In this document: one piece after another, positions 2,490 through 64,000 of the stretch
Numbering within the stretch: position 1 is the stretch's first letter
How the letters are laid out: each line of letters opens with the position of its first letter
DNA from: Octopus sinensis
Taxonomy: Eukaryota
NCBI RefSeq assembly: GCF_006345805.1
Contig: NC_042999.1
Location: forward strand, 171,864,001-171,928,000
Length of the DNA stretch: 64,000 nucleotides
Direction: 5' to 3'
Notes under the pieces: generated by a model
Told to the model about the DNA's origin: nothing
The model's input: only the letters and a program-made list of their open reading frames with translations
Database searches by the model: none
Position numbers and translations under genes: made by a program

Positions 2490-3645
2490 CATAATCGGAA
2501 CTGGCCAAATACCTTGAAACAACCAATGATTGGATGCTAAAACCTGTTGAAAAATATGAAAGACCGAAAAAAAAATCACTCTATTCTGAAAGAGAACAAA
2601 ACATTCGCTAAAGATCTCTTAGATATCCACGACATTGATCAGGTTGAAGGCAATGTGCCAAATGCTGCTGCAAAGAAAATAATATTAATAGCAAAGAAAA
2701 AAGCATATGAAAAATTAGCTAGAAGATGGGAGCAGAAACCTCTGCATGGCAAGCATGTGGCCCGTAGCAAATAAGGTGATGTCGATTAGAAACACACGCA
2801 TCAATGGATACGAAGCTCACAGCAAAAGGCAGAGAGTAAGGGTTCCATATTAGCTGCTCAAGACCAAAGCTTATTAACCCGGACCTACCAAGCCAATGTG
2901 ACAAAAAGATGGAGCTGACCCAAAATGACGATTCTGTAACGATAGATTGAAACTATAGACCACCTAATCTCAGGATGTAGAGTCTTAGCACCTGTAGAAT
3001 ATAAAGCAAGGCATGACAGAGTCGGCCAGTATTTACACTGGACAATATGTCGGCATTATAAAATCAAAACGGTTGACAAATGGTATAAACACCATCCTGA
3101 AGCTGTGACTGAGGGACAAAATGTGTCGATTCATTGGGACTTCCCCGTACATACCGACAAAACTATAAAAGCTAATATACCGGATATTATTATAAAAGAT
3201 CAGACAAAAAAGGTGTGTTTATTAATTGACATTAGTATTCCTTGCGATCACAACATAGCGGCGAAAGAATTGGACAAAATCAATAAATATAAAGACTTGC
3301 TAATCGAAATTGAAAAAATGTGGCATCTCAAGGCGACTACAGTACCAGTGATTGTAGGATCTCTAGGAATGATAAAACAAAGGTACTGAAACCTTCCCTA
3401 CAGGAAGTGCACAAAATCGTGCTAACTCGAACGACTCATGTACAGCATTATCGCCGTGAAAACAACATTCATTCATGAATTTATTTATTCATTAATTTTT
3501 TAAATACATATTGTATTTGTGTGTGTAATCTGGGAATGCACACAATGTGCTTCTCTGCCCTAGGTGGACGGAAATCACTCGGCGAGAAATGGTAGAAAAT
3601 TTGAAGAAAGAAAGAAAAAAATAATAATGATAATAATAATATGGA
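2490..3645 (+). mobile_element. 5'-truncated, frameshifted R4/Dong-clade non-LTR retrotransposon (C-terminal zinc knuckle + restriction-like endonuclease)
   Basis: Peptides WEQKPLHGKH, AAQDQSLL, ETIDHLISGC...YKARHDRV..YLHW, WDFPVHTDKTIKANIPDIII...LIDISIP...KINKY...VPVIVGSLG match the CCHC + PD-(D/E)xK C-terminus of R4/Dong ORFs; ends in a (TAA)-like run at ~3620-3642. Confidence 0.85.
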
Positions 3646-5633: not shown

Positions 5634-6045
5634 TGGCTGTGTGGTAAGTAGCTTGCTAACCAACCACATGGTTCCGGGTTCAGTCCCACTGCGTGGCATC
5701 TTGGGCAAGTGTCTTCTGCTATAGCCCCGGGCCGACCAATGCCTTGTGAGTGGATTTGGTAGACGGAAACTGAAAGAAGTCTGTCGTATATATGTATATA
5801 TATATAAGTGTGTGTGTATGTGTTTGTGTGTCTGTGTTTTTCCCCCTAGCATTGCTTGACAACCGATGCTGGTGTGTTTGCGTTCCCGTCACTTAGCGGT
5901 TCGGCAAAGGAGACCGATAGAATAAGTACTGGGCTTACAAAGAATGAGTCCTGGGGTCGATTTGCTCGACTAAAGGCGGTGCTCCAGCATGGCCGCAGTC
6001 AAATGACTGAAACAAGTAAAAGAGTAAAAGAGTAAGAGTAAAGAG
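5634..6045 (+). mobile_element. SINE family A (tRNA-derived head, internal TA/TG microsatellite, LINE-like 3' tail)
   Basis: A-box-like tggctgtgtggtaag, B-box-like gggttcagtccc; near-identical copy at 48520-48937; tail ggcggtgctccagcatggccgcagtcaaatgactgaaac followed by (gtaaaaga)n. Confidence 0.9.
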
Positions 6046-6140
6046 TAATATATATGTATATATGTATATGTGTGTGTGTGCGTGTGTTTGTATGTGTATT
6101 TAATATTTTGGCCTGACGAGTATATGTCGATCAGTGTATG

Positions 6141-6474
6141 GGTGTACCTAAGACCCAGACTGCAAAATAGATGCAACACACAATGCTGGACGGAGTCCTA
6201 CCTATAAAGGACAGTAGCAGGATGGCAAAGTTTCAGCTACTTGATATCATCCACATTCGAGGTCTCTTTCTGTTGGATCTACTTGAGGAACTCCGCAGTG
6301 TTAGTTGAGATAATAATAATAATAATGCCTTAAGCAACGAGAAGATTGATTTAATATTAATCTTTATTTTGTACAACGTTCATCTCGATCCATCCTGCTA
6401 CTGTCCTTTATAGGTAGGACTCCGTCCAGCATTTTGTGTTGCATCTATTTTGCAGTCTGGGTCTTAGGTACACC
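6141..6474. repeat. Near-perfect 85-bp inverted repeat with ~164-bp spacer
   Basis: 6141-6225 is the reverse complement of 6390-6474 with about one mismatch. Confidence 0.95.
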
Positions 6475-6623
6475 ATGCATACATAAAGTTGTGTCTCGCT
6501 AAACATCCTGACTTTAGGCTGTCATATTTTTATATGCTCGTTCTACAAAATAAAGATTTCTACAAAATCTGTTTTCGTTACTTAAGAAATTCTAGCAGAA
6601 TGTATGTATGTGTGAGTGTGTGC

Positions 6624-7721
6624 GTGTGTATAAACGACAGTGAACAAACGATACGAAATAGCGCTGAACATGATATGATATAAAACTATTTTTAACAGGT
6701 TGAACTTGAAATACTACCCAATGCTTCTTGGTGCAAGAAAATACAACGAGCCATGATGTACAGTGTCAAAATACGGATAAATGAAAATGGTTTTAAATAA
6801 GATTATTGGCAGTTGTCCTTTGGGTATGAAGCATTACTTTAGTAGATTCATTAAACAGCCCACGTCAATATTTGGTGTATTAGTTGTTCAGGTGTCCGGG
6901 AATACAGTTTAATAGAAATAGTTTTGTTATGAACAAATTTGTCAGCTTAATATTTCAAAACTCAGTAACATACATTATTACTTAGGTGGGGGACTGCTTT
7001 TTGTGAAAATAGCACTGTTACAAATTTGGCCGTGTCAGATGGCATAGCACTTGATGAATCCCATATAACTATGCGTTATGTATTTGTGTATGGATAATGA
7101 AGAGTAAAAATGATGATATACATCAGTGTAATGAAGTCCTTTTGGAAATGCAGAAGACTGTTAAATTTGCAAATCTCACTGTGATAGATAATGCATAGTT
7201 ACAGAAGAACCAGCAGCTAATCTTATGTGCGTTGACAGCAATTTCTTTAATAAGTTATCTTGTTGATGAACACTGTGGATTGTTGCATATTAGGCACAAT
7301 TTCACTAACACAGAGTCGACAATTACAAACTTCATGAAAGGGTATAAGAAATGACAACAATGGTCCATGAGATGCAGAATTGCTGGGTTTTGAGATATTA
7401 AGCTGGCAAATTTGTTCATAACAAAACTATTTCTATTAAACTGTATTCCTGGACACCTGAACAACTAATACACCAAATATTGACGTGGGCTGTTTAATGA
7501 ATCTAAAGTAATGCTTCATACCCAAAGGACAACTGCCAATAATCTTATTTAAAACCATTTTCAATTATCCGTATTTTGACACTGTATATCATGGCTCGTT
7601 GTATTTTCTTGCACCAAGAAGCATTTAGTAGTGTTTCAAGTTCAACCTGTAAAAAATAGTTTTATATCATATCATGTTCAGCGCTTTTACCTCTCGTTTG
7701 TTCACTGACATTTATACACAC
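6624..7721. mobile_element. Fold-back element with ~345-bp inverted arms and ~410-bp spacer, bounded by (TG)/(CA) tracts
   Basis: 6624-6968 aligns with the reverse complement of 7380-7721 with scattered substitutions and small indels. Confidence 0.9.
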
Positions 7722-8149
7722 ATACACACATATATGTGTATGTTTGTGTTTGTGTGTGAGTGTTAAGTCACAGATATTTGTCATTTTATACACCCCCTAT
7801 CGTTTTCTCGTAGAATGATACATTAAGGAGGAAGTGTGGTGTGGGGATGCATATTTATCTTATCCCTGGAATTTATGGAGCAAAAATCCTTTTTGTGTCA
7901 GTCATCGCTTGACTTCACCGGCTGTTATATTAATGAAGGTACTTTTGATGCAAACGGTACGACGGTAGCTCTTTACGAGAGCAAATTTTATATTGATGAC
8001 ACCTGGTAGAATTCACAGAGTAAGATATAAAAAGGAATCTGTTTGGCTGTGAGTTTCCCTCTCTTATAGTAAAAAAGATCTCGCATAAGTATTTTTAGCT
8101 ATCACAAATATCTATTTCTGTTTAAACAGCGCTTATGCAGACAAGTATC

Positions 8150-8765
8150 TCTGGTGGAAAAGGGACAAAATATTACAGGAACAATACATAATTGTTCTTG
8201 ACAGATTTAGAAGTTCAGATTTATGAGCAAACCGTATAAACCCCAACAACTTCAAGAGATATTAATTGGCAACTACAAGCGATACGTTGTTGACGGTTTT
8301 ATATCTTCGATACTACGTTTTGATCAAATTATTTATTTCGTCAAAATAATGAATAGCATAAATAATAGTATTCAATAGACCATACGCAAAAACGCAGACC
8401 TTTTATGGATATTTTAGTCAATAAAATTGACACAGACATAAAAATAGACATTACTTCAAACCAGCATACGAAAAACAATATTTGATTATTAATAATTGCC
8501 ACCACGAAACAGCCAAGCAAATACACAGTTCAAATTTGAAAGAATAATCTGCTCAATTGCATCTCTTTCAGAAACACTGGATAGACGACGTCAAGTGTTG
8601 AAATATTAAGGAAATTACAATTTGAAAAGTAGTAACAATCAAAAATAATTAAGGACGGGATACAACGAGTCGGGGATAGTGAGGTAAAAGCTACCAATGA
8701 AGAAACAGACATCTTACAAAGCTTTCTTTCATGTATCAAAACACGGCCTATCAAATCTAGGAGCA
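8150..8765 (+). mobile_element. Decayed Penelope-like element reverse transcriptase fragment
   Basis: Reads YKRYVVDGFI (RYVDD motif) at ~8274, then PFMDILVNK and YFKPAYEKQYLIINNCHH, resembling the PLE RT/thumb consensus FLD...YRKPT..YL...S.HP. Confidence 0.7.
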
Positions 8766-22679: not shown

Positions 22680-25338
22680 TCAATGGGAAATCAGAAACAG
22701 AACTGATGAACTTGATAATCTATTATCAACAATTACATGGGAGACTTCAATCTGCCCAATGTCAGATGGCCGAGGGCCTTTCTCTCCAGGAATGACAAGA
22801 TGTGAACGAGGACAGGCGAGGTCCCTCCTGAACCTCATCAACACCCTGTACATGGAGCAGTAATACTCCAACCAACCAGGGCAGGTAACACACTGGATCT
22901 CTGCTTCACAAATGACATGGATCTCATCCATAATGTGAAAGTGACACCGACACTACTCTCGGATCACAACATGATAGAGCTGACCAGGTACGGGCCCAAA
23001 AGAGAGCAGGACATGCAGCCTACAAGAAACCCTCAAAATCTTTCCAGCTTGAACTACCATAAGGCAAACTGGAAACAAATTGAGAAAGAGATCCTCAAAC
23101 AAAACTGCCTAAAGTCTCTCCTCGCCAGACATCGACGTGAAACTTCAACAAATCATGTCTGTAATGCAAGCCATATGCTACAAATGTGTCCCAGAGAGAA
23201 AGGCCACTGTACACAAGAACAAAATCCCCAGAGAGAGGAAAATTTTAATGAGACGGCGTACGAATTTTCAAATCGCCTAAACAAACAGATTGAAAGCAGG
23301 AAAAGTCCCGCCTAAAATAAAACTGTTGGAAATCGAAAAATGTCTGCAACTCTCCCATGAAAAAGAAAAGAGCAGACAAAGAAGCCTGGGCTATAGAAAA
23401 CATAAAATTAACCCAGAGCTTTCTACAGGTATGCCAAAGAAACAGCTACAGTGCACTGTAGAATAGGGCCACTCCTCGAAAAGGATGGCACACTTACAGG
23501 AAAACCAATGAGGGTAAGTGAAATACTGAATGAGCAATTCAAGAGTGTTTTCACTCCACCCCTTGGGCTCTCCACAAATCACCAATCCAACTGACTTTTT
23601 TACCACTGCAGATATAAAATCAGAGGCGGCGACGATAGATTACATCGATATAAAGGAAGACGATGTAACCAAGGCTATAGATGAAATGAAAACAGACTCA
23701 GCTACTGGCCCCGATGGATTCCCGGCAATCCTCCTAAAAGCATGTAGAGAGTCCTAGCAAGACCACTGCAGTTCCTCTTTCAGAGCTTCCTTGCAGCTGG
23801 CAACTTCAGGAAAACTGAAGGAAGGTTAAAATATGCCCCATCATAAAGGAGGTAGCAGAGCGGAAGCCAAGAACTATAGACCTATCTCTCTAACCTTACA
23901 CATCAGCAAGGTCATGGAACGAATAGTCAGAAGGAAGCTGATCACCTTCCTTGAGAGAATGACTTGCTGCCGAACCAACATGGTTTCCGACCAGGGAGAA
24001 GCTGTTTAACTCAGTCCTACAACACTATGACTGGGTGCTGAAACGGCTGCTCAACCACTCAAATGTGGAAGTGATATATCTCGACTTTGCAAAGGCCTTT
24101 GATAAAGTCGATCATGGAATGATATGTCACAAACTGCGTGATCTCAACATAGTTGGAAAACTGGGAGAATGGCTTCATGACTTTCTGAAGGATAGAAGTC
24201 AGGTGGTAGTAGCCAATGGGGCCACCTCCATTAACACACAAATAGTGAGCGGTGTTTCCGAGGGCACTGTTCTGGGACCACTACTGTTCATAATGGCCCT
24301 CTCAGATGCCCTCAGCCACGCAGAGAGCACGATCACAAGTTATGCAGAGATGATACAAAAGTTTCACAGGCAATACAGAACCCTGAGGACACTAAACACC
24401 TGCAATGTGAGCTGGACGAAATATACAAGTGGGCTGAAAAGAATAGCATGCAGTTCAATGCTGGAAAGTTTCAAGCTTTATACTATCAGCATGCAAAACT
24501 GAATGCAATACCCAATGAATACATTGGACCCGAGGGATTGCAATCCAGAGGCACAATCAGTGCGTGACCTGGGTATTCACATGAGTGATGACGCGACATT
24601 TCATGTACATGTTGCTAAACTGACAATGAAATGTAGACGGCTGGCTGGATGGATTCTTAGAACCTTTAGAACAAGAGAACAAGAAACCATGATGGTCGTC
24701 TGGAAGACACTTGTCCTAAGCCACTTGACTATTGCTCTCAGCTATGGTCACCATCCAGTGTCAAGTTGATCACAGACCTTGAGGCGATCCAACGAAGCTA
24801 CACAAAGAAGATAGCCTCTATGCAGAATGTAAGCTACTGGGAAAAGACTCAAGAGATTAAAATTATATTCCCTGGAGCGTAGGCGGGAAAGATATGCCAT
24901 AATATACATCTGGAAGATCCTGGAGGGAAGGTTCCTGAACTTTGGCATCGAGAGTTTACGCAAAATGCCAGAACTGGGCGCCACTGCGTGGTGCCTAGGA
25001 CTCCAACCTGCCATCAAGATGTAGGACAAGATTCTGTGATAGCCTGGGCTTCCGAGGCCCACAGCTCTTCAATATCCTCCCGAAGAACCTGAGAGACCTG
25101 CATGGGGTGGATACAGATGTCTTTAAAATGAAGCTGGATCTCTTCCTGTCAGGTGTCCCAGATGAACCAACTTCACGGCAGGAGGGGCAGATGAGGGCAG
25201 CTGCATCGAACTCTCTCATGCACCAAATAACAGTTGCTAGAAAGCCTCCATGAAGTGAAACCAAGTAGCAACACCAAATGGCGGTGCCCCAGCATGGCCA
25301 CAGCTCATAAGCTGAAACTAGAATCAATCAATCAATCA
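22680..25338 (+). mobile_element. 5'-truncated LINE ORF2 (APE endonuclease + reverse transcriptase), frameshifted; CR1/L2-group-like
   Basis: MGDFNLP, LSDHNMI (APE); ATGPDGFP, NYRPISL, QHGFRPGRS, YLDFAKAFDKVDH, SGVSEGTVLGPLLF, RDLG (RT); C-terminal FKMKLDLFLSGVPDEP; 3' tail with (aatc)n. Confidence 0.95.
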
Positions 25339-29487: not shown

Positions 29488-30133
29488 ATATCTCAAGTCA
29501 TATACGTTATTATTATAGAAAAAATATTCAGTCTTACAGCTGTTTCTGGGATATCCCAGAGTATGAGATCTTCCGTTATCGGTGACAAATAGGGAAAATG
29601 AGAAGGGTATAGATTAATGAAATGACGACAGAGAGGTCAGGAGTACAGGAATGAGAAGATGAAGAAAAAGAAGGAAAAAGAAGCATAAACGTTCACAGTT
29701 CAGCCTTCCGATCGTGTATAAATGAATCCAGAACTTCTTAGGTGCAACCGTGCGTAAATTCATGTGGGTTAAAGTCCTGATAGCGTAAATATTCAGAAAA
29801 AAAAACCCAAACATAGCAATGTTCAATAACAGAATGGTAGTGTATGTGGCCTAAACCACATGGATTTACGCAGGATTGCACCTAAGGACTTATGGAATTA
29901 TTTCTACAAGATCGGAAATTTGAACTGTGTAACTTTATGATTCTTTTTTCTCGTTCTTCATCTCCTTATTCCATTACTCCTGTCCTCTGTGTCATCATTT
30001 CACTAATTTGTAGCCTTCTTATTTTCTCCTTTTTTCTCCGATGACTGAATATCCCATACTCTGGGATATCCTCAAAACACCTGTAAGACTGAATTTCTTT
30101 TCTAATAATAATAATGTATATGACTTGAGATAT
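29488..30133. mobile_element. Diverged fold-back element (~285-bp arms), one hammerhead motif per arm
   Basis: 29488-29774 aligns with reverse complement of 29850-30133; HHR motifs at 29531-29586 (-) and 30034-30089 (+). Confidence 0.88.
29531..29586 (-). ncRNA. Type I hammerhead ribozyme motif (partly decayed)
   Basis: gtca-ccgataa-cggaagatctca tactc tgggatatccca-gaaac agct gta-agac; sister arm supplies ccgatga and gaatatccca/tgggatatcc stem II. Confidence 0.7.
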
Positions 30134-30209: not shown

Positions 30210-30303
30210 AATACCTTCTTGGCTATAACCTTGGAGCCATAGTAATCCGTTACAGTACCCAGTCGTTTAGGTAAGAAGTGAAGTAGACTCCCGTATTATA
30301 TAT

Positions 30304-30335
<32 letters not shown>

Positions 30336-30422
30336 ATACGGGAGTCTACTTCACTTCTTATCTAAACGACTGGGTACTGTAACGGATTACTATGACTCCA
30401 AGGTTATAGCCAAGAAGGTATT
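30210..30422. repeat. Near-perfect palindrome (~90-bp arms) centred on (TA)n
   Basis: aataccttcttggctataacc...ctcccgtatta (TA)n taatacgggag...gccaagaaggtatt, about two mismatches. Confidence 0.95.
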
Positions 30423-30452
30423 GGCTATAACCTTAGATTCAAGATCAAAGTT

Positions 30453-30803
30453 AGATTCAAGATCAAATCTAACTTTACTTGTGCCTCTGAAAACATAATT
30501 TATGTCATAAAATGCTCGGGCTGCCACCAAGACTACGTGGGATCCACGGGACTATCACTCAGACGTAGATGCACACTGCATCGACAACAGATTGCATTCC
30601 CAGAATACAGAATGATACCTTTTAGTGAGCACATTGAGAAATGCACAAAGCAACTACTACCACAATTTTTAATCTTTCCATTTTACCAATGTGCTATCGG
30701 ATCATCAACACAAATTAGACTAAACAAGGAAACATTCTTCATTGAAAAGTACAAGCCCAGACTTAAACATGCCAACATACTGATACAGAGAAATTCACAC
30801 TAA
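30453..30803 (+). mobile_element. Penelope-like element GIY-YIG endonuclease domain (5'-truncated, frame open)
   Basis: RFKIKSNFTCASENIIYVIKCSGCHQDYVGSTGLSLRRRCTLHRQQI...SEHI...RLNKETFFIEKYKPRL: IY...YVG motif, catalytic R, H, E and P-L-x terminus typical of PLE endonucleases. Confidence 0.9.
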
Positions 30804-30933
30804 GGGAAAGGAAAAAAATTTTAAGCGATTATCTCTCTTACACCGGAAGAAATCACTCATTACCTCCCTTTATTTAGAACTATTTTAAACATAAACATAA
30901 CGATGACTCTATTCAACATAAACATAACGTCGT

Positions 30934-30972
30934 AAGAAATTTGAAAAGCTAAACGCGAAACCGGTCTTTCTT
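30934..30972 (+). ncRNA. Degenerate minimal hammerhead in the PLE 3' pseudo-LTR
   Basis: aagaaa-tttgaaaa-gc taaac gc-gaaac cg gtc-tttctt: 6-bp stem I, GAAAC..GUC intact, core mutated; 130 bp downstream of the GIY-YIG ORF on the same strand. Confidence 0.6.
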
Positions 30973-31145
30973 CTAAACTATGTCATTGTAAGAGAAAAAA
31001 AAATGTTATATTCTTCAAACATATTGACGCAAATATATATATATTTTAACCTTTAAGCCTTCTGTAGTTTTTTTCACTTTTTACTATTTTCTATATATTC
31101 AACCACGTGCTTTCACAAACCAACTTTCTTGTATATATATAATAT

Positions 31146-43455: not shown

Positions 43456-43487
<32 letters not shown>
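43225..43487 (-). mobile_element. Possible Helitron-like 5' end
   Basis: Terminal gacacacatagtcagacattttgccgtttatatata parallels the end of the 51943/52462 Helitrons; no clear 3' CTRR found. Confidence 0.3.
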
Positions 43488-43489
<2 letters not shown>

Positions 43490-43806
43490 AAACCCCACAC
43501 ACACGCGTGCATCATAAAGATTCATACACACGTCTATATACGCACATACCCGTATGTACGCTCATACCCGTATGCACGTACACACAGACGCCTATATATG
43601 CACATACGCATATAGACGTGTTCGGGTATGTGCGTATATATGCGTGTGTGCGTGCGTGCATATGGGTTTGTGCGCATATAGACGTGGTATACTCCCTTAC
43701 ACATTTTTTCTGTATTGTTACCTTTAGACCTGTTTTTTTGTGCTTGTGCGTATATAGACGTGTGTATGAATCTTTATGTTGCGCGTGTGTGTCTGTGGGT
43801 TTGTAT
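43487..43806. repeat. Palindrome built of microsatellite-like sequence
   Basis: cataaagattcatacacacgtctatatacgcac (~43513-43545) is the exact reverse complement of ~43747-43779; both strands translate HKDSYTRLYTH. Confidence 0.85.
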
Positions 43807-44113
43807 GCGTAAATCACGCTCTTATATATGTTTCTTACGTTCGACTTCTCTGTCTCCTATTCTATGTCAAAGACGGAAGTCCGTAGCTGGAGAGGATGCA
43901 AACAAACACGTTACTTGTGTGCTTTCTTGCCTGGAATGCGTAGTACCGTTTCATTTGCAGTTTCAGCTATTAGTATGTCTGTAGAAAATCTCAATTGAAA
44001 AAAAATTTTCATCAGTGTCTGAAAGTTATATTCTGTTGAATTTATTCAAGTGTAATGCTGTGAGAGCTTGGAGTTGGTAAATAAATTGGTAGGGCATTTA
44101 TCAATATCAACGT

Positions 44114-44161
<48 letters not shown>

Positions 44162-44167
<6 letters not shown>

Positions 44168-44496
44168 GGAGTTTAACGTAGGTATAATTCAAATACGTTT
44201 AGTTCCGACACATGTTTCGAAGATTTCACTGATATTATTCCAAAGGAATAAATGGTGTAAAGCATCTTCTCTTCAAGGAAGTGAAGAAATGAAACTCGTC
44301 AATAATACATTTTCACAGAAAATGATGAATATGTATATGTTAACATGTCTTATTGACGACTTTCATTTCTTCACTTCCCTGAAGAGATTACATTGCTTTA
44401 CACCATTTATTCATTTGGAATAATATCAGTGAAATCTTCGAAACATGTGTCGGAAGTAAAAGTATTTGAATTATACCTGCGTCAAACTCCATTTAT
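44162..44496. mobile_element. Fold-back element (~150-bp arms) abutting (TA)n, one hammerhead per arm
   Basis: 44162-44310 vs reverse complement of 44345-44496; HHRs at 44203-44280 (-) and 44373-44457 (+). Confidence 0.92.
44373..44457 (+). ncRNA. Type I hammerhead ribozyme motif
   Basis: acttcc-ctgaaga-ga(aga)tt...aatcttc-gaaac atgt gtc-ggaagt; the sister arm has gaagat/atcttc stem II but ttgaaga core. Confidence 0.8.
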
Positions 44497-44652
44497 TTAT
44501 TTATATATTATACAAAAATTCCACTTAAACCCGAAGTTTCTACCTTTAAAAACAAGGCGTTACAAACTTTTTACTTGTGTGATTTTTTGCTACCCTGGTA
44601 ACTATTTATCTATTTTTTCCGTGTTAATTGTTAACAAGGGAAAAATACACTC

Positions 44653-47725: not shown

Positions 47726-48519
47726 AGACGAAGCTGAATAAAATGCGTAATGCCATAAAATTGGACATTATTTAAATTATAACTATTAATTAACATATCA
47801 AATTATATTAAGGGGTCAAGCAAAGATCAGGCGTGTTAGAAGCTTTAGACACCAAATAGTTCTAGAAAAGAGTATCAAGGAAAAGTAATATACGTGAGGT
47901 ACAATAAGAATAGCGTTATTGGCAATTTTAAATTATGTGTTACTATATTACTTAATATTATATTACTTTATTAATATATCTAATTCCTACTAAATAAACT
48001 GAAAATGTTGATTTTATGATTGCGACTAATTATGATTCTGTTTCTATTGTTTAATAACTTTTCCTTGGATAATAATGTTGGGAGAGATTCCTGTGTGGAT
48101 AGTCGATATTCCTATCTTTCAAATCTGTATGATCATGCAGTATCTATTCAAACACCAAATATGCTTTGAAAACGATGTCAAATGCATCGTCATGATAAAT
48201 GAATTGAGGCTTGTGCATTCAGTAACTATTTTTGAAGAGATTAGAAGTGCGATCCTATAGTATTTAATGTCATTAAAGTACGTGCACCATATTTTCTTTG
48301 TCCAATGTCCTAAAAGAGTAATACTTTAGCTCTTCTTTCACAATAATTCAAGTCTAGAACTATGATGATATTGTACTCCCCAGCTCCCAATATACTTATT
48401 GGCGCTCCTATCTTGTTTGATTGCATAGGAGTGCTGTTATTCACATGTTTACATTTGTCTGTTCTCGTGAAGGTAATACACATTTCTGTACCTGTAACAC
48501 TGTAACTATGTTCAATATA

Positions 48520-48690
48520 GGCGCAGGTGTGGCTGTGTGGTAAGTAGCTTGCTTACCAACCACATGGTTCCGGGTTCAGTCCCACTGCGTGGCATCTTGG
48601 GCAAGTGTCTTCTGCTATAGCCCCGGGCCGACCAATGCCTTGTGAGTGGATTTGGCAGACGGAAATTGAAAGAAGCCTGTCGTATATATG

Positions 48691-50227: not shown

Positions 50228-50692
50228 TGCTACTGCTGCTGTTGCTGCTGCTGCTACTGCTGTTGTTATTGTTGTTGTTGTTATTGATGTTTTTATTGCT
50301 GTTCTTATTGTTACTATAATTATTAACTGTCTGAATAATTTTATCGGTTACTTCAAAAGGGGAGTGGTTTATCGGGTCAAAGATAATTAGTTTCAGAGAC
50401 TTCGATAGATGTGACGGATGGTAATGTCGATTATGCAAATATAAATCGTTTAAATAATACTAGCAGACGATAAACTTTTAAACAAAAGAAACGCAGTCCT
50501 AATTAGTTGCAATCTAAAATTCTTCAAAACTTCCCCGTTTACAAAGTTCAAAGTGAGCTTATAAATAAGGTATTGAAACGTTACTCACTCAGTTGATATT
50601 TAGTTTACATTTGGCATTTGATCATCATGTTTCGAATTAATGTGACCTATTTAACTAGTTTCTTTATACATCTTATTCTTCATACTATTCAC

Positions 50693-51214
50693 GCTAGGCC
50701 AGTGGTAATGGAAATTTCAAATAATTCTGATCACCCTTTGATATTATTAATTATCGATAAATTTTTGGAAAGTTTTCGAATTGAAAAGCCAGTATTTAAT
50801 TTACTGCCAAGGAGCTGCGCTTGCGCGGTAGATTTGGAAAATTAGAATGTATAAGCACGAGGTATATAGTGGATTGTCTCGTGTATATATATATAATCTA
50901 AAGTGTACCTGCTGAAGAACACTTCGCCTAGCAAATTATTTTATTTGCTAAAAAACGTCTGAAACCATTGGTCCAGGAGTTAGATGGTAAATGTTTTTAT
51001 TTTTCATTCCCTTCGAAATTTTATTCCTAATAGTGGTTTGTAATTTTACTGTCCTCTCTTGCGTGCAAGGAATCCTATGATGGATACCTCTTGTGTGTTT
51101 AAATATACACCGTATTTGAATAAATAACATATAGTCTATTGACTAAATGTTTACAAGCTAGGCCACTGATAATGGAAATTTCAAATATTTCTGATTACCC
51201 TTTGATATTATTAA

Positions 51215-51215
<1 letters not shown>
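50693..51215 (+). mobile_element. Partial tandem pseudo-LTR-like element (~464-bp period) containing a hammerhead, ending at (TA)n
   Basis: ~59-bp direct repeats at 50693-50751 and 51157-51215 bracket the HHR at 50908-50977. Confidence 0.75.
50908..50977 (+). ncRNA. Type I hammerhead ribozyme, core intact
   Basis: cctg-ctgaaga-acac...tagcaaat/atttgcta...gtct-gaaac cattg gtc-cagg; GUC cleavage triplet, one mismatch in proximal stem II. Confidence 0.8.
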
Positions 51216-51251
<36 letters not shown>

Positions 51252-51942
51252 CTGCATTTTTAGAGATGTGCTATACTCTGAGGACAAATGTAGATATAAA
51301 CGTTTATCGTTCCGTATATGTGTGCGTGCGTGCGTGTATATTTTTATACATTTATACATACATATATATATCCGTGTATCTCAATGTTTGTATGTAGATA
51401 ATTGATCAAAATATTCAATTTTATTCTACTCTTTGTCGGATTTACTTTGTCATTTTTTCTATGTTCTATTCATATATTTTACTTCTCTTTATATTGCTTA
51501 TACGATCGATGTATGTTCAATATGCATCCTATTCTCATGACTATTATAAGTTATTCGTCAATCTATTTAAGCTAAGTAAATTTTCAAATTGAGCTCCCTT
51601 TAAAGTGATTCACTTTGGCACTATAATTACGTTTACTTCACTCAACCTTCTCAATCTATTTACTTCATTTAACCTAGTATAAATTCTGCCAATATACAAT
51701 CATTTTTCGCTACTAACGTCACATGAATGTAATGAGTTTAATTAATCCTTATGTAATAATCATAGTAAAATGTGTTTATAACATAAATTTGACATAAATA
51801 TTCCATTACATTGTTATATTGTCTTCTCATGTGTGCATACAGATATATGTCTTAATCGTCGAAGGAATTTATATAAAACGATATGAAGCAAAATACAGTT
51901 CACACTACGAACGGGACTTTTCACTCCAATATTTATATGTTA

Positions 51943-52458
51943 CTAGCAGTATCGCCCGGCGTTGCTCGGGTTTGTAAAGGAAATAACTATATAAGCATTT
52001 TTAGAGAGTTACTTCCTTTATAGATGCCAATTCGGGCTTTTTTAGCCATTTCTGTTTTGGTGTCTTCAAGCCATGAAGTCGTTGTTCTAAAAGAACGCTG
52101 GTCTCCTTGACAACGCATTACGACGTTGATTTCCTTAAACTCCCTTCCCCACAGCTTCACGAGGGAGGGAAGAAGGGGGAGAAGCAAACACAGGTGCAGG
52201 TGTTGAGCGTGGACGCCAACTCCGCCGCCATCGACACACGAAACATTATGCATTAAAATGGAATAAAAAATGATGTTAAATTATTTTTAAAATCGTAGAC
52301 TCATCGTAGACGCGCGCTAATGCTCAGACGGGCTCGATATTAATCACGACTATAAGATACCCGAATTTGGTTAAACTGCACCGCAAAATGTGGGAGGAGT
52401 TAGGAATCTAAATCGTAGGAGACAGACACTCACACAACTACAGTTTTATATATATAGA
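51943..52458 (-). mobile_element. Non-autonomous Helitron, copy 1
   Basis: Minus strand starts a|TC, ends CTAG|t with hairpin cccgagcaacgccggg ~10 nt before the end. Confidence 0.9.
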
Positions 52459-52461
52459 TTA

Positions 52462-52966
52462 CTAGCAGTATCGCCGGCGTTGCTCGGGTTTGTAAGGGAA
52501 ATAACTATATAAGCATTTTTAGAGAGTTACTTCCCTTATAAATTCGGGCTTTCTTAGCCATTTTTGTTTTGGTGTCTTCAAGCCATGAAGTCGTTGTTCT
52601 AAAAGAACGCTGGTTTCCTTCACAACGCATTACGACGTTGATTTCTTTACACTCCCTTCCCCACAGCTTCACGAGGGAGGGAAGGGGGAGAAGCAAACAG
52701 GTGCAGCTGTGAGCGTGGACGCCAACTCCGCCGCCATCGACATACGATGCATTTTATGCATTAAAATGGAATAAAAAATGATGTTAAATTATTTTTAAAA
52801 TCGTAGACTCATCGTTGACGCGCGCTAATAGTCAGACGGGCTCGATATGAATCACGACTATAAGATACCCGAATTTGGTTAAACTGCACCGCAAAATGTG
52901 GGAGGAGTTAGGAATCTAAATCGAAGGGGACAGACATTCACACAACTAGAGTTTTATATATATAGA
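52462..52966 (-). mobile_element. Non-autonomous Helitron, copy 2 (head-to-tail tandem)
   Basis: Same termini and highly similar body to copy 1. Confidence 0.9.
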
Positions 52967-53019
52967 TTTATATAGCCTTATGCAATGTGCTTTGAGGTGG
53001 TCTATTTCTAAGAAGAGTT

Positions 53020-53455: not shown

Positions 53456-55516
53456 TGTGTGTGTCTGTGTGTCTGTGTACACAAACATACATACACACAC
53501 ATTCACACACACACACACATATACAGTAATTATCTGCATATTAATCTGTCGCAAACTATGTCCTAAACATTAGAGGCGTTTTCACATGCAAGAGAACTCC
53601 AATGGGGTTCATATGTTCTCATGTCACTCTTCATGAGAATTATTACTAGCCAAAATAAATACAATAAAATGAATTCACCGTTGACTTATGCCTTTGAATA
53701 TTAATAGCGTCACGAAGAATCTATCCATTGATCTCGAACATGAGCGGAATTTTAGATTTTACTATCATATAAAACGTAGCCGTTTACCATATTTTCTTTT
53801 ATATTAGTATATGTTTATAATAAATTAGGAATTATTTATATTTATATTCAAGAATTAATAATGTACTAACATTTTTATTTATTATAGGGAAACCTCCATG
53901 AAACACATGCATATACCGTGTATATGTATTTAAATATATGAGTTTGTGTGATCTTTTTGTGAATGATGAACTAAAGGCCTGAATTCTGGCAATGTGCCTA
54001 ATTAGAAAAGCACATTATTTTCACCATTGTCGCGAGCATAGTTCGTTATTGCTCATTTGTTAAGCAGGGGAACTCACCTTTTATAATGAACACGGCCTGT
54101 TACTGATTAAACTTATGAAAACCCACTTACATATACAATATGCAGAGACAGATATTCGCTACTCTGAACTAAACAATCTGCTGTTAATATATTATATTTA
54201 AATGCATTGATGACTCGTGAAGATCCACACTACCTTATATTAACAATGAAAACATCCATTCGTATACAACATACGTTTTTTTTACCCAGTGAACCATTTT
54301 ATGATCCAAAATACAAATAGTAATACCATTGCACCTTAAGTCATAATAGTTCAACATTAAAATGAGTACCACACGTTAATTTATGAAATAGTAATATGTT
54401 TTATCTTTATTCATCTCATATTTACATTAGCTTTCTTACAACATACGAATTAATATTGTACACTACACATATCTCTTACATATATCTTAAGAGATATTTC
54501 AATATCTCTTATGGTTTTCTATATTTCTATCATTCTTTCATACCGCTGTATGTATTTAAATAAATATTTGATACATTATGTTCTAACATGTTTTCTGATG
54601 TCTTAAATTCCATAATTTCAGTTTATACATTGAAGTGCTTATTTTACAATTTTACTGCTCCGCTAATTAAGCAAACTTTCTGATTACTGATTGTGGTTTG
54701 TCCTCAGAATTATTACGTACTGATTATCTTTTCTTGTAATATACGAGAAGATATATTATTATATGCCCATGGAAAATAATAAGATTTTTAAAATTTTAAG
54801 TCACGTACCAATCACCAGATGTATTATTATTGGTCTTATATAAATTCACTCCCAATATTTTAACTTATTTACTTATAACCATTTCTATCAAACAATCTGT
54901 TTAATTTACTTGCAAAATCAGTTTACTACCTGTTCTGATGATGATTTTAGAGGGTGACAATGTATCTTTTTAAATTCTGGTTCAACGGGGCTTTTGTACA
55001 ATTTCAGTCGCTTATGTTGTTATTCAATTACGTTTATCTACTTATGACTTAAATATAATTATACCTTTACTGTTATATGTACACAAAATGAAATGTCTAT
55101 ATATTCCATATGGCTCTACGTAGTTTGTTTACAATTCTACTCGCTGTTTTTATTATTTAATTACGCATCATCTACTTTGTCTCACCCCAAATTATCTTTA
55201 ATTCTATTTAATGATTAATGTTCACCTGCCAGGATTAACCCCTACACATCCAATGACATTAGACACAGCCTCTTTAAAATAAACAACTACTGATGTTAAA
55301 AAAGGAATTCCAAATTTTTTCTGTGTTACGTACACAATTATTGAGTTTTCAATTGAAATGTGCACATGTGACTTTTGTTACTCTAATGAATAATCTATTT
55401 CTGTATTCATACATACATTCAAATATATATTCATACATTTATACATACGTACATATATTCATATGTATATATATATATATAAATAGACATATATACGCAT
55501 ATGCGTATATGTAAAT

Positions 55517-57475: not shown

Positions 57476-57520
57476 GTGTGTGTGTGTGTGTATGTTTATT
57501 TATGTATATGTATATATATA

Positions 57521-57929
57521 TATATTATATAGAGGGTACTATTATTCATAGGTACCGCACGCTAGGAGGGACTCTTGCAGTCAGAACTACTAAAATAAAA
57601 AAATTGTACCAAATGCAAAACTTCAAAGCAAGTCATTTAAAAACAGAAGTTACATATCACCTGTGATTTCGCAATCAATGCAGAATATGCATTATATGCT
57701 CTTCAGTGCAACGAACTCAAGACATGTAAGGAAACAACACAATATAGCATACCCGACAGCCAACCGTAGAATTCGTCGTAGCATGTACGAATGTTTATCT
57801 TTACATATCTATGAAAATGGCGGGCTTATTCGCAATGCATTTCGGTAACATTTTAGTAGTTCTGACTGCAAGAGTCCCTCCTAGCGTGCGGTACCTATGA
57901 ATAATAGTACCCTCTATATAATATATATA
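57521..57929. mobile_element. Element with perfect ~76-bp terminal inverted repeats in (TA)n, enclosing a hammerhead
   Basis: 57521-57596 equals reverse complement of 57850-57925; internal HHR. Confidence 0.92.
57649..57712 (-). ncRNA. Apparently intact type I hammerhead ribozyme
   Basis: gttgca-CTGAAGA-gca tat aatgca tattc tgcatt gat tgc-GAA-atcac ag gtgat-A-tgtaac: all three stems pair, core complete, AUA cleavage triplet. Confidence 0.88.
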
Positions 57930-61704: not shown

Positions 61705-61736
<32 letters not shown>

Positions 61737-61739
<3 letters not shown>

Positions 61740-62011
61740 CAAAACTAAGAGGAATGACCATTAAAGTGGACATCCTATATGCTAAACATAGACGTCAAAT
61801 CGCCATTACCACGAAGAATGTGTTCTCAAGAACACATTCTTCGTGGTAATGGCGATTTGACGTCTATGCTTAGCATATAAGATGTCCACAAATCGCCATT
61901 GCTACGAAGAATGTGTTCTCAAGAACACATTCTTCGTGGTAATGGCGATTTGATGTCTACGTTTAGCGTATAGGATGTCCACTTTAGTGGTCATTCCTCT
62001 TACTTTTGTAT
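61737..62011. repeat. Nested double palindrome abutting (TA)n
   Basis: Two hairpins centred on gttct-ca-agaac (~61827 and ~61920) inside outer inverted arms tacaaaactaagaggaatgacca / tggtcattcctcttacttttgta. Confidence 0.93.
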
Positions 62012-62094
62012 GTAACACAATTTTTAATCTTCGGATTTTTAAATATGCTAAGCCACTGTTTTTAATTGATTAACATAAATTTCTATCCTTATTA

Positions 62095-62136: not shown

Positions 62137-62851
62137 GTAACATATGGTTTCGTAGAGTCGTGTGTCTACCACGGGAATCTCTTCTAGGGGAATCGGCTAT
62201 CAGATCACATAATGATTCAAGACATATGATTTTAATACACAGTTCCATGCAGCTGAAATCCACGAGATCTGATCGATGAGGTTATTTATTGAGGTGTATA
62301 TAAACAATAAATGTCAGGAAGTTAGACAGCTGAATGTTTATATTCAACCACTTGTCTTCCTTCCGGTTACAGCTGTTTCGCCCCTTCTTTATTGTATATG
62401 TCCGTTCTAATACGCACGCTCGCATTATAGAACACAACACAATAGGTGAAGCATTGTGATGGACATAATATCCTGGTGATCTGATAAGCCAGCTTTCTTT
62501 ATCTACATTGTTTTGCGAATTTGTAACGTACCGAGTAATGTGTAGCATGTATATTTATGCAGACATATAAACGTAATTTATTGTACACTAAAATAATTAT
62601 TACTTAAAGTAAGCTGTGAACCGACCGGAATCTTAAGGATGAGAGGTGGTTAAATACATGCTAGAAGGTGCTGAAAAGATCCTGGCTTTAAGTGTGTAGC
62701 GAAAGAACAGGATGAGCTCTTTTATAGAGCTTAGTAAAAGTGAAGGGCCATTGCAATAAGTGTATGAAGCTGAGAGAGGAATATGTCGAATAAAATCCAA
62801 AGTAACTGACCCTCCTGCATTTTCTTTTACCCAAAGCCAGGAACTTTTCAA
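62110..62851 (-). mobile_element. Possible decayed PLE 3' end with hammerhead half-site
   Basis: ORF 62633-62851 weakly resembles the PLE endonuclease C-terminus; gc-gaaac agct gta-accggaa at ~62362-62381 (-); terminates at (TA)n. Confidence 0.35.
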
Positions 62852-62904
62852 ACATATGTTTGTATGTGTTTAGTGTTTGCCTGTATATAATTATACACAC
62901 GTAT

Positions 62905-63065
62905 AGGCGCTGGAGTGGCTATGTGGTAAGAAGTTTGATTCCCACCCACATGGTTCAGGGTTCAGTTCCACAACGTGACACCTTGGGCAAGTGTATTCTC
63001 ATGTAGCCTCTTGCAGACCAAAGCCTTGTGAGAGGATTTGGAAGACAGAAACTGAAAGAAGCTTG
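62905..63065 (+). mobile_element. SINE family A 5' half
   Basis: ggcgctggagtggctatgtggtaag...gggttcagttcc...ccttgggcaagt...aaactgaaagaagc. Confidence 0.85.
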
Positions 63066-63129
63066 TTATACATACATACATACAAACATATATATATATA
63101 TATATATATACATATATATATACATATAT

Positions 63130-64000
63130 ATTATATATAAGGGCTTAGTAAAATAAATTACTTTGCCACATACTGAACTCATTAGAAATAGCAGCTAAAG
63201 AAATTTCTTTAGCTATTTCTAATACTTAAAGAAAATCTCTCTCAGATAGTGTTTGCTCAAACCAACTCACACAGGTATGGGGGAAAAAACATTAAAAAAT
63301 CAAGTGCAAAGGTTATTTGAGAACATACGTTTCTAGATTAGTCAAATCTACATTTCTTTCGTCAGCTCAGAACTCCTTGATTCGGATTTGGGAACACTGA
63401 AAGTGGGAGCATATCCTTTAGGCTTCTTATCACCTCTAGATTTCCGCTCGAACTAAAAGTGCTATCAAATTCGAAATATGCAAGCGAAGAATTTCTGCTC
63501 TCCCCTCTCCACCAGCGTGGGTTAAAATTGACAAACACTATGTTTTATCTGTGAAAACCGACGCATTAAACAGAGAGAAATGAATTATAATTTCAACAAT
63601 TGAGGGTAAAATTAATTAATTATTAATCAATTTCACCAAGTATTCAGTATGTAAAGGGACCATTTTAGGCGAATTCAAAATATTACATTATATATAAGGG
63701 CTTAGTAAAATAAATTACATTGCCACATACTGAACTCATTAGAAATAGCAGCTAAAGAAATTTCTTTAGCTATTTCTAATACTTAAAGAAAATCTCTCTC
63801 AGATAGTGTTTGCTCAAACCAACTCACACAGGTATGGGGGAAAAAACATTAAAAAATCAAGTGCAAAGGTTATTTGAGAACGTACGTTTCTAGATTAGTC
63901 AAATCGACGTGGCAAAGTAATTTATTTTACTAAGCCCTTATATATAATGTAATATTTTGAATTCGCCTAAAATGATCCCTTTACATACTGAATACTTGGT
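63130..64000. mobile_element. Young partial-tandem (557-bp unit) plus inverted repeat element with hammerhead motif; runs off window end
   Basis: 63130-63348 repeated at 63687-63905; 63909-64000 is reverse complement of 63635-63726; minus-strand tgag-ctgacga...gaaac gtat/gtac gtt-ctca at 63318-63369. Confidence 0.88.

Follow-up and report, generated by a model that had tools for sequence, protein, structure and literature searches.

A young non-coding insertion with Penelope-like tandem and inverted architecture in the TA tract of a SINE-like repeat of Octopus sinensis

The window analysed, a 64-kb stretch of AT-rich Octopus sinensis DNA that is loaded with microsatellites and contains no N, ends in a tandem and inverted structure at 63130-64000, and this structure is real. 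A full unit of 557 bp (copy 1, 63130-63686, minus strand, GC content 33.6%) is followed by a 5'-truncated partial copy of 222 bp (copy 2, 63687-63908, minus strand), the equivalent of a pseudo-LTR (pLTR), and then by an inverted copy on the plus strand (63909-64000). The element sense is the minus strand, with an AT-rich 3' end at 63130 that merges into its TA target. The direct repeat of period 557 was detected between 63127-63351 and 63684-63908 with 98% identity. With the boundary set at 63130, leftward of which the first mismatch to the unit junction occurs at 63129, the repeat comprises 222 nt with three mismatches (63162/63719, 63325/63882 and 63349/63906) and the direct arm comprises 779 bp or 1.40 units, in agreement with the approximately 1.4-fold repetition given in the initial annotation. 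The inverted copy, which that annotation had placed across the unit junction, mirrors 63726-63635 over 92 nt with two mismatches. It begins 40 nt before the 3' end of the unit and does cross the junction, reading at least 52 nt beyond it; the window ends inside this arm and the right boundary of the insertion lies beyond 64000. The copies differ by few bases as originally described, with four substitutions in 588 site-copies, or 0.68% per copy (95% CI 0.19-1.74%), and every difference is private to one copy.

To its left the insertion is flanked by a SINE-like repeat of which the 5' half (62905-63066, plus strand) is present, followed by the internal TA/TACA microsatellite of the SINE (63067-63129, within a TRF call of 63067-63139), which is the insertion target. 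The host half is 82.7% identical over 162 nt to 48519-48680 and 82.9% identical over 146 nt to 5634-5779. Both of these copies are intact and pass through the TA/TG tract into a 3' body, confirming the earlier placement of the insertion in the internal TA tract of a SINE. The 3' half of the host SINE would lie beyond the window. We take the 5' half to be a tRNA-like head by the A/B-box consensus; ARAGORN found no tRNA in 62905-63066. The intact copies are 93% alike and the host copy is only 83% like them, indicating that the SINE is older than the insertion. With the rate that follows from PMC13282606, in which a JC value of 0.09 corresponds to 25 My, the insertion would be approximately 2 My old (0.5-4.8), provided that this rate applies. 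The description of the insertion as very young is fair at 0.68% divergence per copy but marks nothing exceptional, the inverted arms of another insertion in the window (57517-57929) differing at 0 of 80 sites.

The unit was described initially as lacking coding sequence, and the searches for an ORF or a remnant of a Penelope-like element (PLE) by Pfam, tblastn and protein comparison are in agreement. The longest stop-to-stop frame in the unit is 60 aa, and a single ORF with reverse transcriptase (RT) and GIY-YIG endonuclease is absent by Pfam and tblastn. None of six of the longer frames matched an RT or GIY-YIG family in Pfam, the one weak hit (E=0.18) being irrelevant, and tblastn with three PLE-type proteins gave no match in the unit. 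Word-index protein searches returned nothing for the 60-aa minus-strand frame, compared with longer proteins only, or for a 57-aa plus-strand frame, compared with proteins of similar length only. HMMER with the 60-aa frame produced two hits, each a match of 24-26 residues in proteins with 10 or 3 matched stretches, and such a pattern of short, repeated matching seems unlike a PLE remnant. A search for other copies of the unit within the 64-kb window returned only self-hits, and no DNA similarity to the other hammerhead (HHR) or PLE elements of the window, including its PLE fragment, was found at E<0.05. The 20 loci in prokaryotic genome contigs that matched the unit, over at most 26 nt of a hairpin, were taken as chance. 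Four short motifs of the unit had no occurrence in the literature searched, and no paper dealing with the 557-nt family or with octopus hammerheads turned up in the open-licence literature searched.

The architecture was compared with the insertion signature of PLEs. A partial tandem is present as the full unit at 63130-63686 and the 5'-truncated pLTR copy at 63687-63908; an inverted 5'-truncated copy is present directly at the 5' end (63909-64000), its outer end lying beyond the window; and a (TA)n or AT-rich target is present as the tract at 63067-63129 that the 3' end of the element joins. The earlier claim of a full Penelope signature is therefore upheld for the partial tandem, the adjacent inversion and the target, but the word full goes further than a window that ends in the inverted arm, as the signature also comprises a 30-40-bp tail at one end and a target-site duplication. 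A donor-like GTGAGT at 63827 and an acceptor-like TTTTCACAG at 63557-63549 straddle the junction; a putative intron across the pLTR/body boundary was rejected as evidence, since 16 of the 68 GTRAGT sites in the window likewise have such a downstream acceptor.

A type I hammerhead-like motif is located on the minus strand of copy 1 (63369-63318) and is the only complete one in 63100-64000. Stem I of 4 bp (63369-63366/63321-63318) encloses CUGACGA (63365-63359), an 8-nt insert, stem II of 6 bp (63350-63345/63339-63334), GAAAC, the loop GUAU and a GUU triplet, with the cut predicted after 63322. The minus-strand motif of the initial annotation was thus correct in the 8-nt segment preceding the 6-bp stem II, but the motif is not complete in copy 2, to which it had been assigned: CUGACGA occurs once in 63100-64000, in copy 1, and copy 2 stops at 63908, one base beyond stem II, retaining the GAAAC-GUAC-GUU half (63875-63908). 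The GUAC loop of copy 2 is part of a perfect palindrome in stem III and loop 3 that a CpG-type change at 63325 broke in copy 1, and the self-duplex is calculated at -13.0 kcal/mol for copy 2 versus -9.4 kcal/mol for copy 1. No copy within the window combines a complete core with an unbroken palindrome.

Dinucleotide shuffling of the unit yielded the motif with the same minimal stem III in 0 of 5000 sequences and a match to a looser descriptor in 22 of 5000. A strict descriptor, set after the motifs had been seen, found two motifs in the window versus 0.095 on average in 200 shuffled windows; it misses the motifs at 44379 and 50912 described below. A descriptor match at 54707 was judged to be chance and was dropped. 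Rfam at gathering threshold returned no hit over the whole window, and in E-value mode the 19 weak hits in 62800-64000, all far below the gathering score, included no hammerhead. The hammerhead-shaped fold of the copy 1 motif is calculated at -2.6 kcal/mol versus an MFE of -8.8 kcal/mol for a fold that does not form a hammerhead, and an alternative register scores +2.5 kcal/mol. GUU is a weak hammerhead triplet. The extended palindrome pairs A14 and U17 in the dimer, which may be inhibitory. Self-cleavage by the copy 1 motif is doubtful because the motif is atypical (the 8-nt insert, a U-A pair at 10.1-11.1 and the GUU triplet); judged from its sequence, the motif may be inactive and the ribozyme may be a passenger.

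The predicted cleavage site is 192 nt from the 3' end of the element at 63130, and the direct arm crosses the ribozyme site twice, at 63322 and 63879. It follows that the units would be set by the start of reverse transcription, and the proposal that they are delimited by the ribozyme is rejected. A cleaved linear monomer was also rejected as the template because of the double crossing; cDNA from such a molecule would end after 192 nt. Reverse transcription of a circular or multimeric RNA, as suggested initially, retains its appeal since copying of more than one unit fits an arm in which the site is crossed twice, but the ribozyme-set units that were part of that suggestion do not.

The internal near-perfect hairpin noted previously is found at 63181-63223 and is repeated at 63738-63780. 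A second long hairpin, AT-rich and missed in the initial annotation, was identified at 63605-63637. A further stem on the minus strand (63643-63734) spans the unit junction and consists of 10 perfect bp plus up to 4 bp beyond a 3-nt bulge (z -2.8). Its arms flank the junction, its loop holds the position to which the 3' end of the insertion maps, and the inversion breakpoint, the mirror of 63726, lies inside its 5' arm. An equally long stem was obtained in 19 of 3000 shuffles and in 10 of 2094 genomic 60-mers, frequencies that apply to a stem picked after it was seen. Since the inverted arm carries the junction and the stem spans it, the results suggest that the junction is a natural continuation of the RNA and not random. 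The unit folds more stably than its shuffles, with z of -6.0 as a linear and -5.3 as a circular molecule, the latter falling to -3.3 when the two hairpins are removed. Self-pairing was nevertheless rejected as evidence for a circle, since the opposite strand is no less stably folded (z -6.5) and, after correction for GC, 34 of 224 genomic tile-strands reach the level of the unit. The junction stem was also considered as the 10-bp terminal inverted repeats of a MITE, a classification that was rejected because its arms do not correspond to the ends of the insertion.

The same 64 kb contains four further tandem or inverted insertions with hammerhead-like motifs, indicating that PLE-style HHR insertions are common here. 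A complete small insertion between TA tracts (57517-57929) contains a type I HHR-like motif with well-formed stems on the minus strand at 57706 and has inverted arms of 80 bp that are free of differences and end at a common 3' terminus. This terminus resembles that of the 557-bp unit, and the insertion is a cleaner, fully visible case of the same signature. The palindromic insertion at 44146-44513 (87% arm identity) lies beside a TA tract with a decayed mirror copy, and has an HHR-like motif at 44379 with a long stem II and a palindromic loop 3. The element at 50690-51226 is older and likewise organised as a partial tandem, with a 464-bp non-coding unit after a 73-bp partial copy (88%); it ends in a TA tract and has an HHR-like motif with an extended stem II at 50912. 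The fourth, at 30210-31131, is a PLE remnant whose inverted arms of 87 bp (two differences) flank the TA tract 30297-30335. It also has a further TA tract at 31132 and, near 30940-30975, a decayed HHR-like motif recognised by eye. A PLE endonuclease fragment at 30396-30803 matches the Pfam GIY-YIG family with E=0.003, below the curated cut-off, and its frame shares 71% identity with a 659-aa protein for which an RT domain is precomputed.

Repeats of other kinds were also observed. The region 8250-8603 was matched weakly in tblastn by two PLE-type proteins, P0001 (E 0.002) and P0003 (E 5e-4), over their RT-side region and, by its sequence, is probably another decayed PLE. Two tandem copies of a unit of approximately 519 bp (51929-52968; 93%) have short sub-terminal inverted repeats and no HHR hit, and we take them to resemble non-autonomous Helitron/DINE-type elements. 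A palindromic element beside a TA tract (61734-62014) has arms of 126 bp (92%) and contains a hairpin that is duplicated in tandem (93 bp). Further long inverted repeats are located at 6135-6483 (94 bp, 96%), 6616-7729 (353 bp, 94%) and 43487-43807 (62 bp, 90%), and among them is listed a strongly folding tile at 29522-30078. The open frames at 2946-3389 and 22806-24502 are presumably fragments of non-LTR retrotransposons, endonuclease- and RT-like by eye on the basis of their motifs.

The insertion at 63130-64000 is probably derived from a non-autonomous PLE or a retrozyme-like, protein-free unit of 557 nt, copied in trans by a PLE RT/GIY-YIG protein that began reverse transcription inside a circular RNA or a multimer that had escaped cleavage. 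From what is observed, namely the arrangement and low divergence of the copies, the TA target, the hammerhead-like motif and the failure to detect an ORF, we infer the following steps. An RNA with more than one unit, either an uncleaved multimer transcribed from a genomic array or a circle, would be bound by the PLE protein, and the endonuclease would nick both strands of the (TA)n tract of the SINE. Reverse transcription would begin within the RNA, at the AT-rich loop site of the stem at 63643-63734, and one cDNA would extend 779 nt through both occurrences of the ribozyme site. The inverted arm would come either from another cDNA, primed on the opposite strand, or from folding back of the first cDNA, and the two inner cDNA ends would be joined at 63908/63909. 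The odds of a circular and of a linear multimeric template are about even.

Counterparts of these steps are found in earlier reports. In vitro, a PLE protein nicks AT-rich DNA on both strands and primes on both strands, and its reverse transcription begins within the RNA, at a stem-loop located downstream of the HHR, cleavage by which is dispensable (PMC11167929). Partial tandems of PLEs with an adjacent inverted 5'-truncated copy are reported in PMC8557442 and PMC2377424 (legend of Fig. 1C), and (TA)n targets are reported for Naiad and Neptune PLEs in PMC8557442. With its steps inferred as above, the locus fits the PLE model of the three papers step for step. The proposed origin from a non-autonomous unit is also favoured by the PLE endonuclease fragment in the window and by the similar 3' terminus of 57517-57929. 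Against it stand the single locus, which the window edge cuts and for which the searches above gave no other copy, with only one unit carrying a complete HHR, the atypical HHR that is unrecognised by Rfam and has an active fold above the MFE, a strong fold of the unit that is not special in this genome, the lack of DNA similarity between the unit and the PLE fragment of the window, and the ability of fold-back to reproduce the junction even if it were absent from the RNA.

It is unlikely that the 557-nt unit represents a distinct, recently active retrozyme family copied from circular RNA, with the hammerhead containing the 8-nt insert as an active new variant. Were the family circle-derived, both arms would be longer than one unit and would have their starting point at a common internal stem-loop, with the inversion typical of PLEs, and such loci would be a direct genomic footprint of PLE machinery mobilising animal retrozymes, which the literature consulted supports only by co-occurrence and pLTR phylogeny. 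The reverse transcription and insertion of animal retrozymes and the origin of the tandem and inverted ends of PLEs are stated to be open in the cited papers. A small, young, non-coding unit with PLE-style inversion predicts sharply where the arms start and stop, and a family of such units could serve as a convenient test set; one truncated locus does not settle the mechanism.

The structure could instead comprise two 5'-truncated 3' ends of an autonomous PLE (557 and 222 bp, consisting of a long 3' UTR/pLTR) joined by template jumping in one insertion, the inverted arm arising by fold-back of the cDNA, with no non-autonomous family involved. Most PLE copies are reported to be 5'-truncated and to occur in partial tandems with inversions, close pairs of HHRs on opposite strands were attributed to truncated PLEs in PMC4209133, and fold-back copies the junction without an RNA multimer. 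The HHR of the unit is moreover of the minimal PLE type and not of the canonical retrozyme type. We assign only a small chance to this origin, however, for at a random truncation the stem that spans the junction would be a coincidence of the rarity given above, and no microhomology that would favour fold-back was found at 63908/63909. In addition, no trace of coding sequence is seen in the approximately 320 nt that precede the HHR, whereas the PLE fragment of the window has its stop approximately 140 nt before the decayed HHR-like motif recognised by eye.

A monomer insertion followed by rearrangement at the DNA level, in which tandem duplication and a template-switch inversion during replication or repair at the TA tract and hairpins would make the PLE appearance incidental, is decidedly improbable. 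The two long hairpins of the unit beside a TA tract and the abundance in the window of inverted repeats of unclear origin are compatible with such events, but flanking host DNA is not duplicated, the repeat begins exactly at the 3' end of the element, and a like architecture is found with unrelated HHR-bearing sequences at 57517-57929, 44146-44513 and 50690-51226. An assembly artefact, either a local misjoin or a hairpin chimera, might be suspected from copies that are 98-99% alike, from the statement in PMC8557442 that such structures trouble assemblies and from a sequence that continues outside the window beyond 64000, but it is very improbable given differences that are each private to one copy and include a CpG-type transition (63325), a geometry that is a biological pattern recurring in the window, and the lack of any N.

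The preferred reading, a non-autonomous unit mobilised by a PLE protein, places the insertion among systems already described. It resembles the non-LTR retrozymes of metazoans (PMC7229834; PMC7761336; 10.64898/2026.07.22.740005) in being a non-coding, low-GC (<50%) tandem unit with a type I hammerhead motif, for which PLE-driven reverse transcription of more than one unit has been proposed, and in the co-occurrence of PLEs in the genome; in O. vulgaris, the supplement of PMC13282606 gives a Penelope-like coverage of 6.83% in 190 families. The length of 557 bp is within the 51-972 bp range of 10.64898/2026.07.22.740005 although above the 150-450 bp of PMC7229834. The retrozymes have canonical HHRs, in contrast to the minimal and atypical HHR of the unit. 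Two consecutive complete HHRs are required of a non-LTR retrozyme in 10.64898/2026.07.22.740005 and the insertion has one within the window, while any further one in the inverted arm beyond 64000 would lie on the other strand; for this reason it is not filed as an active retrozyme. Neither PMC7229834 nor 10.64898/2026.07.22.740005 mentions in its main text an inverted arm next to the unit, and in the latter inversion is named only in the title of a cited reference.

The hammerhead itself shares with the minimal hammerheads of PLEs (PMC4209133) the type I core, the short helix I, here of 4 bp, and the palindrome of 15.2-16.2 and loop 3 suited to dimer folding, perfect in copy 2 and with one change in copy 1. 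According to that paper, the minimal hammerheads conserve one nucleotide between 9 and 10.1 and the pair G10.1-C11.1, whereas the unit has eight nucleotides and U-A, respectively, in addition to the GUU triplet.

The non-autonomous Chlamys PLEs such as MRC1 (PMC8557442) are likewise non-coding and dependent on an autonomous PLE, and they too give rise to pLTRs and to copies arranged head to tail. The Chlamys elements are algal, mostly without HHRs, and share 3' sequence with a known autonomous family, whereas no such partner was found for the unit in the window. The EN+ PLEs (Penelope/Poseidon, Neptune, Nematis and Hydra; PMC8557442, PMC2377424, PMC11167929) share with the insertion the partial tandem or pLTR, the adjacent inverted 5'-truncated copy, an HHR in the repeated part, an internal start of reverse transcription downstream of the HHR, and an AT-rich or (TA)n target. 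They differ in encoding RT and GIY-YIG endonuclease and in extending over several kb, versus 557 bp for the unit. Since it has no ORF the unit is not an autonomous PLE, yet it works like a PLE insertion. Overall, the locus is a real, young, non-coding PLE-type insertion of a class already described as non-LTR retrozymes and non-autonomous PLEs, and its building blocks are all known.
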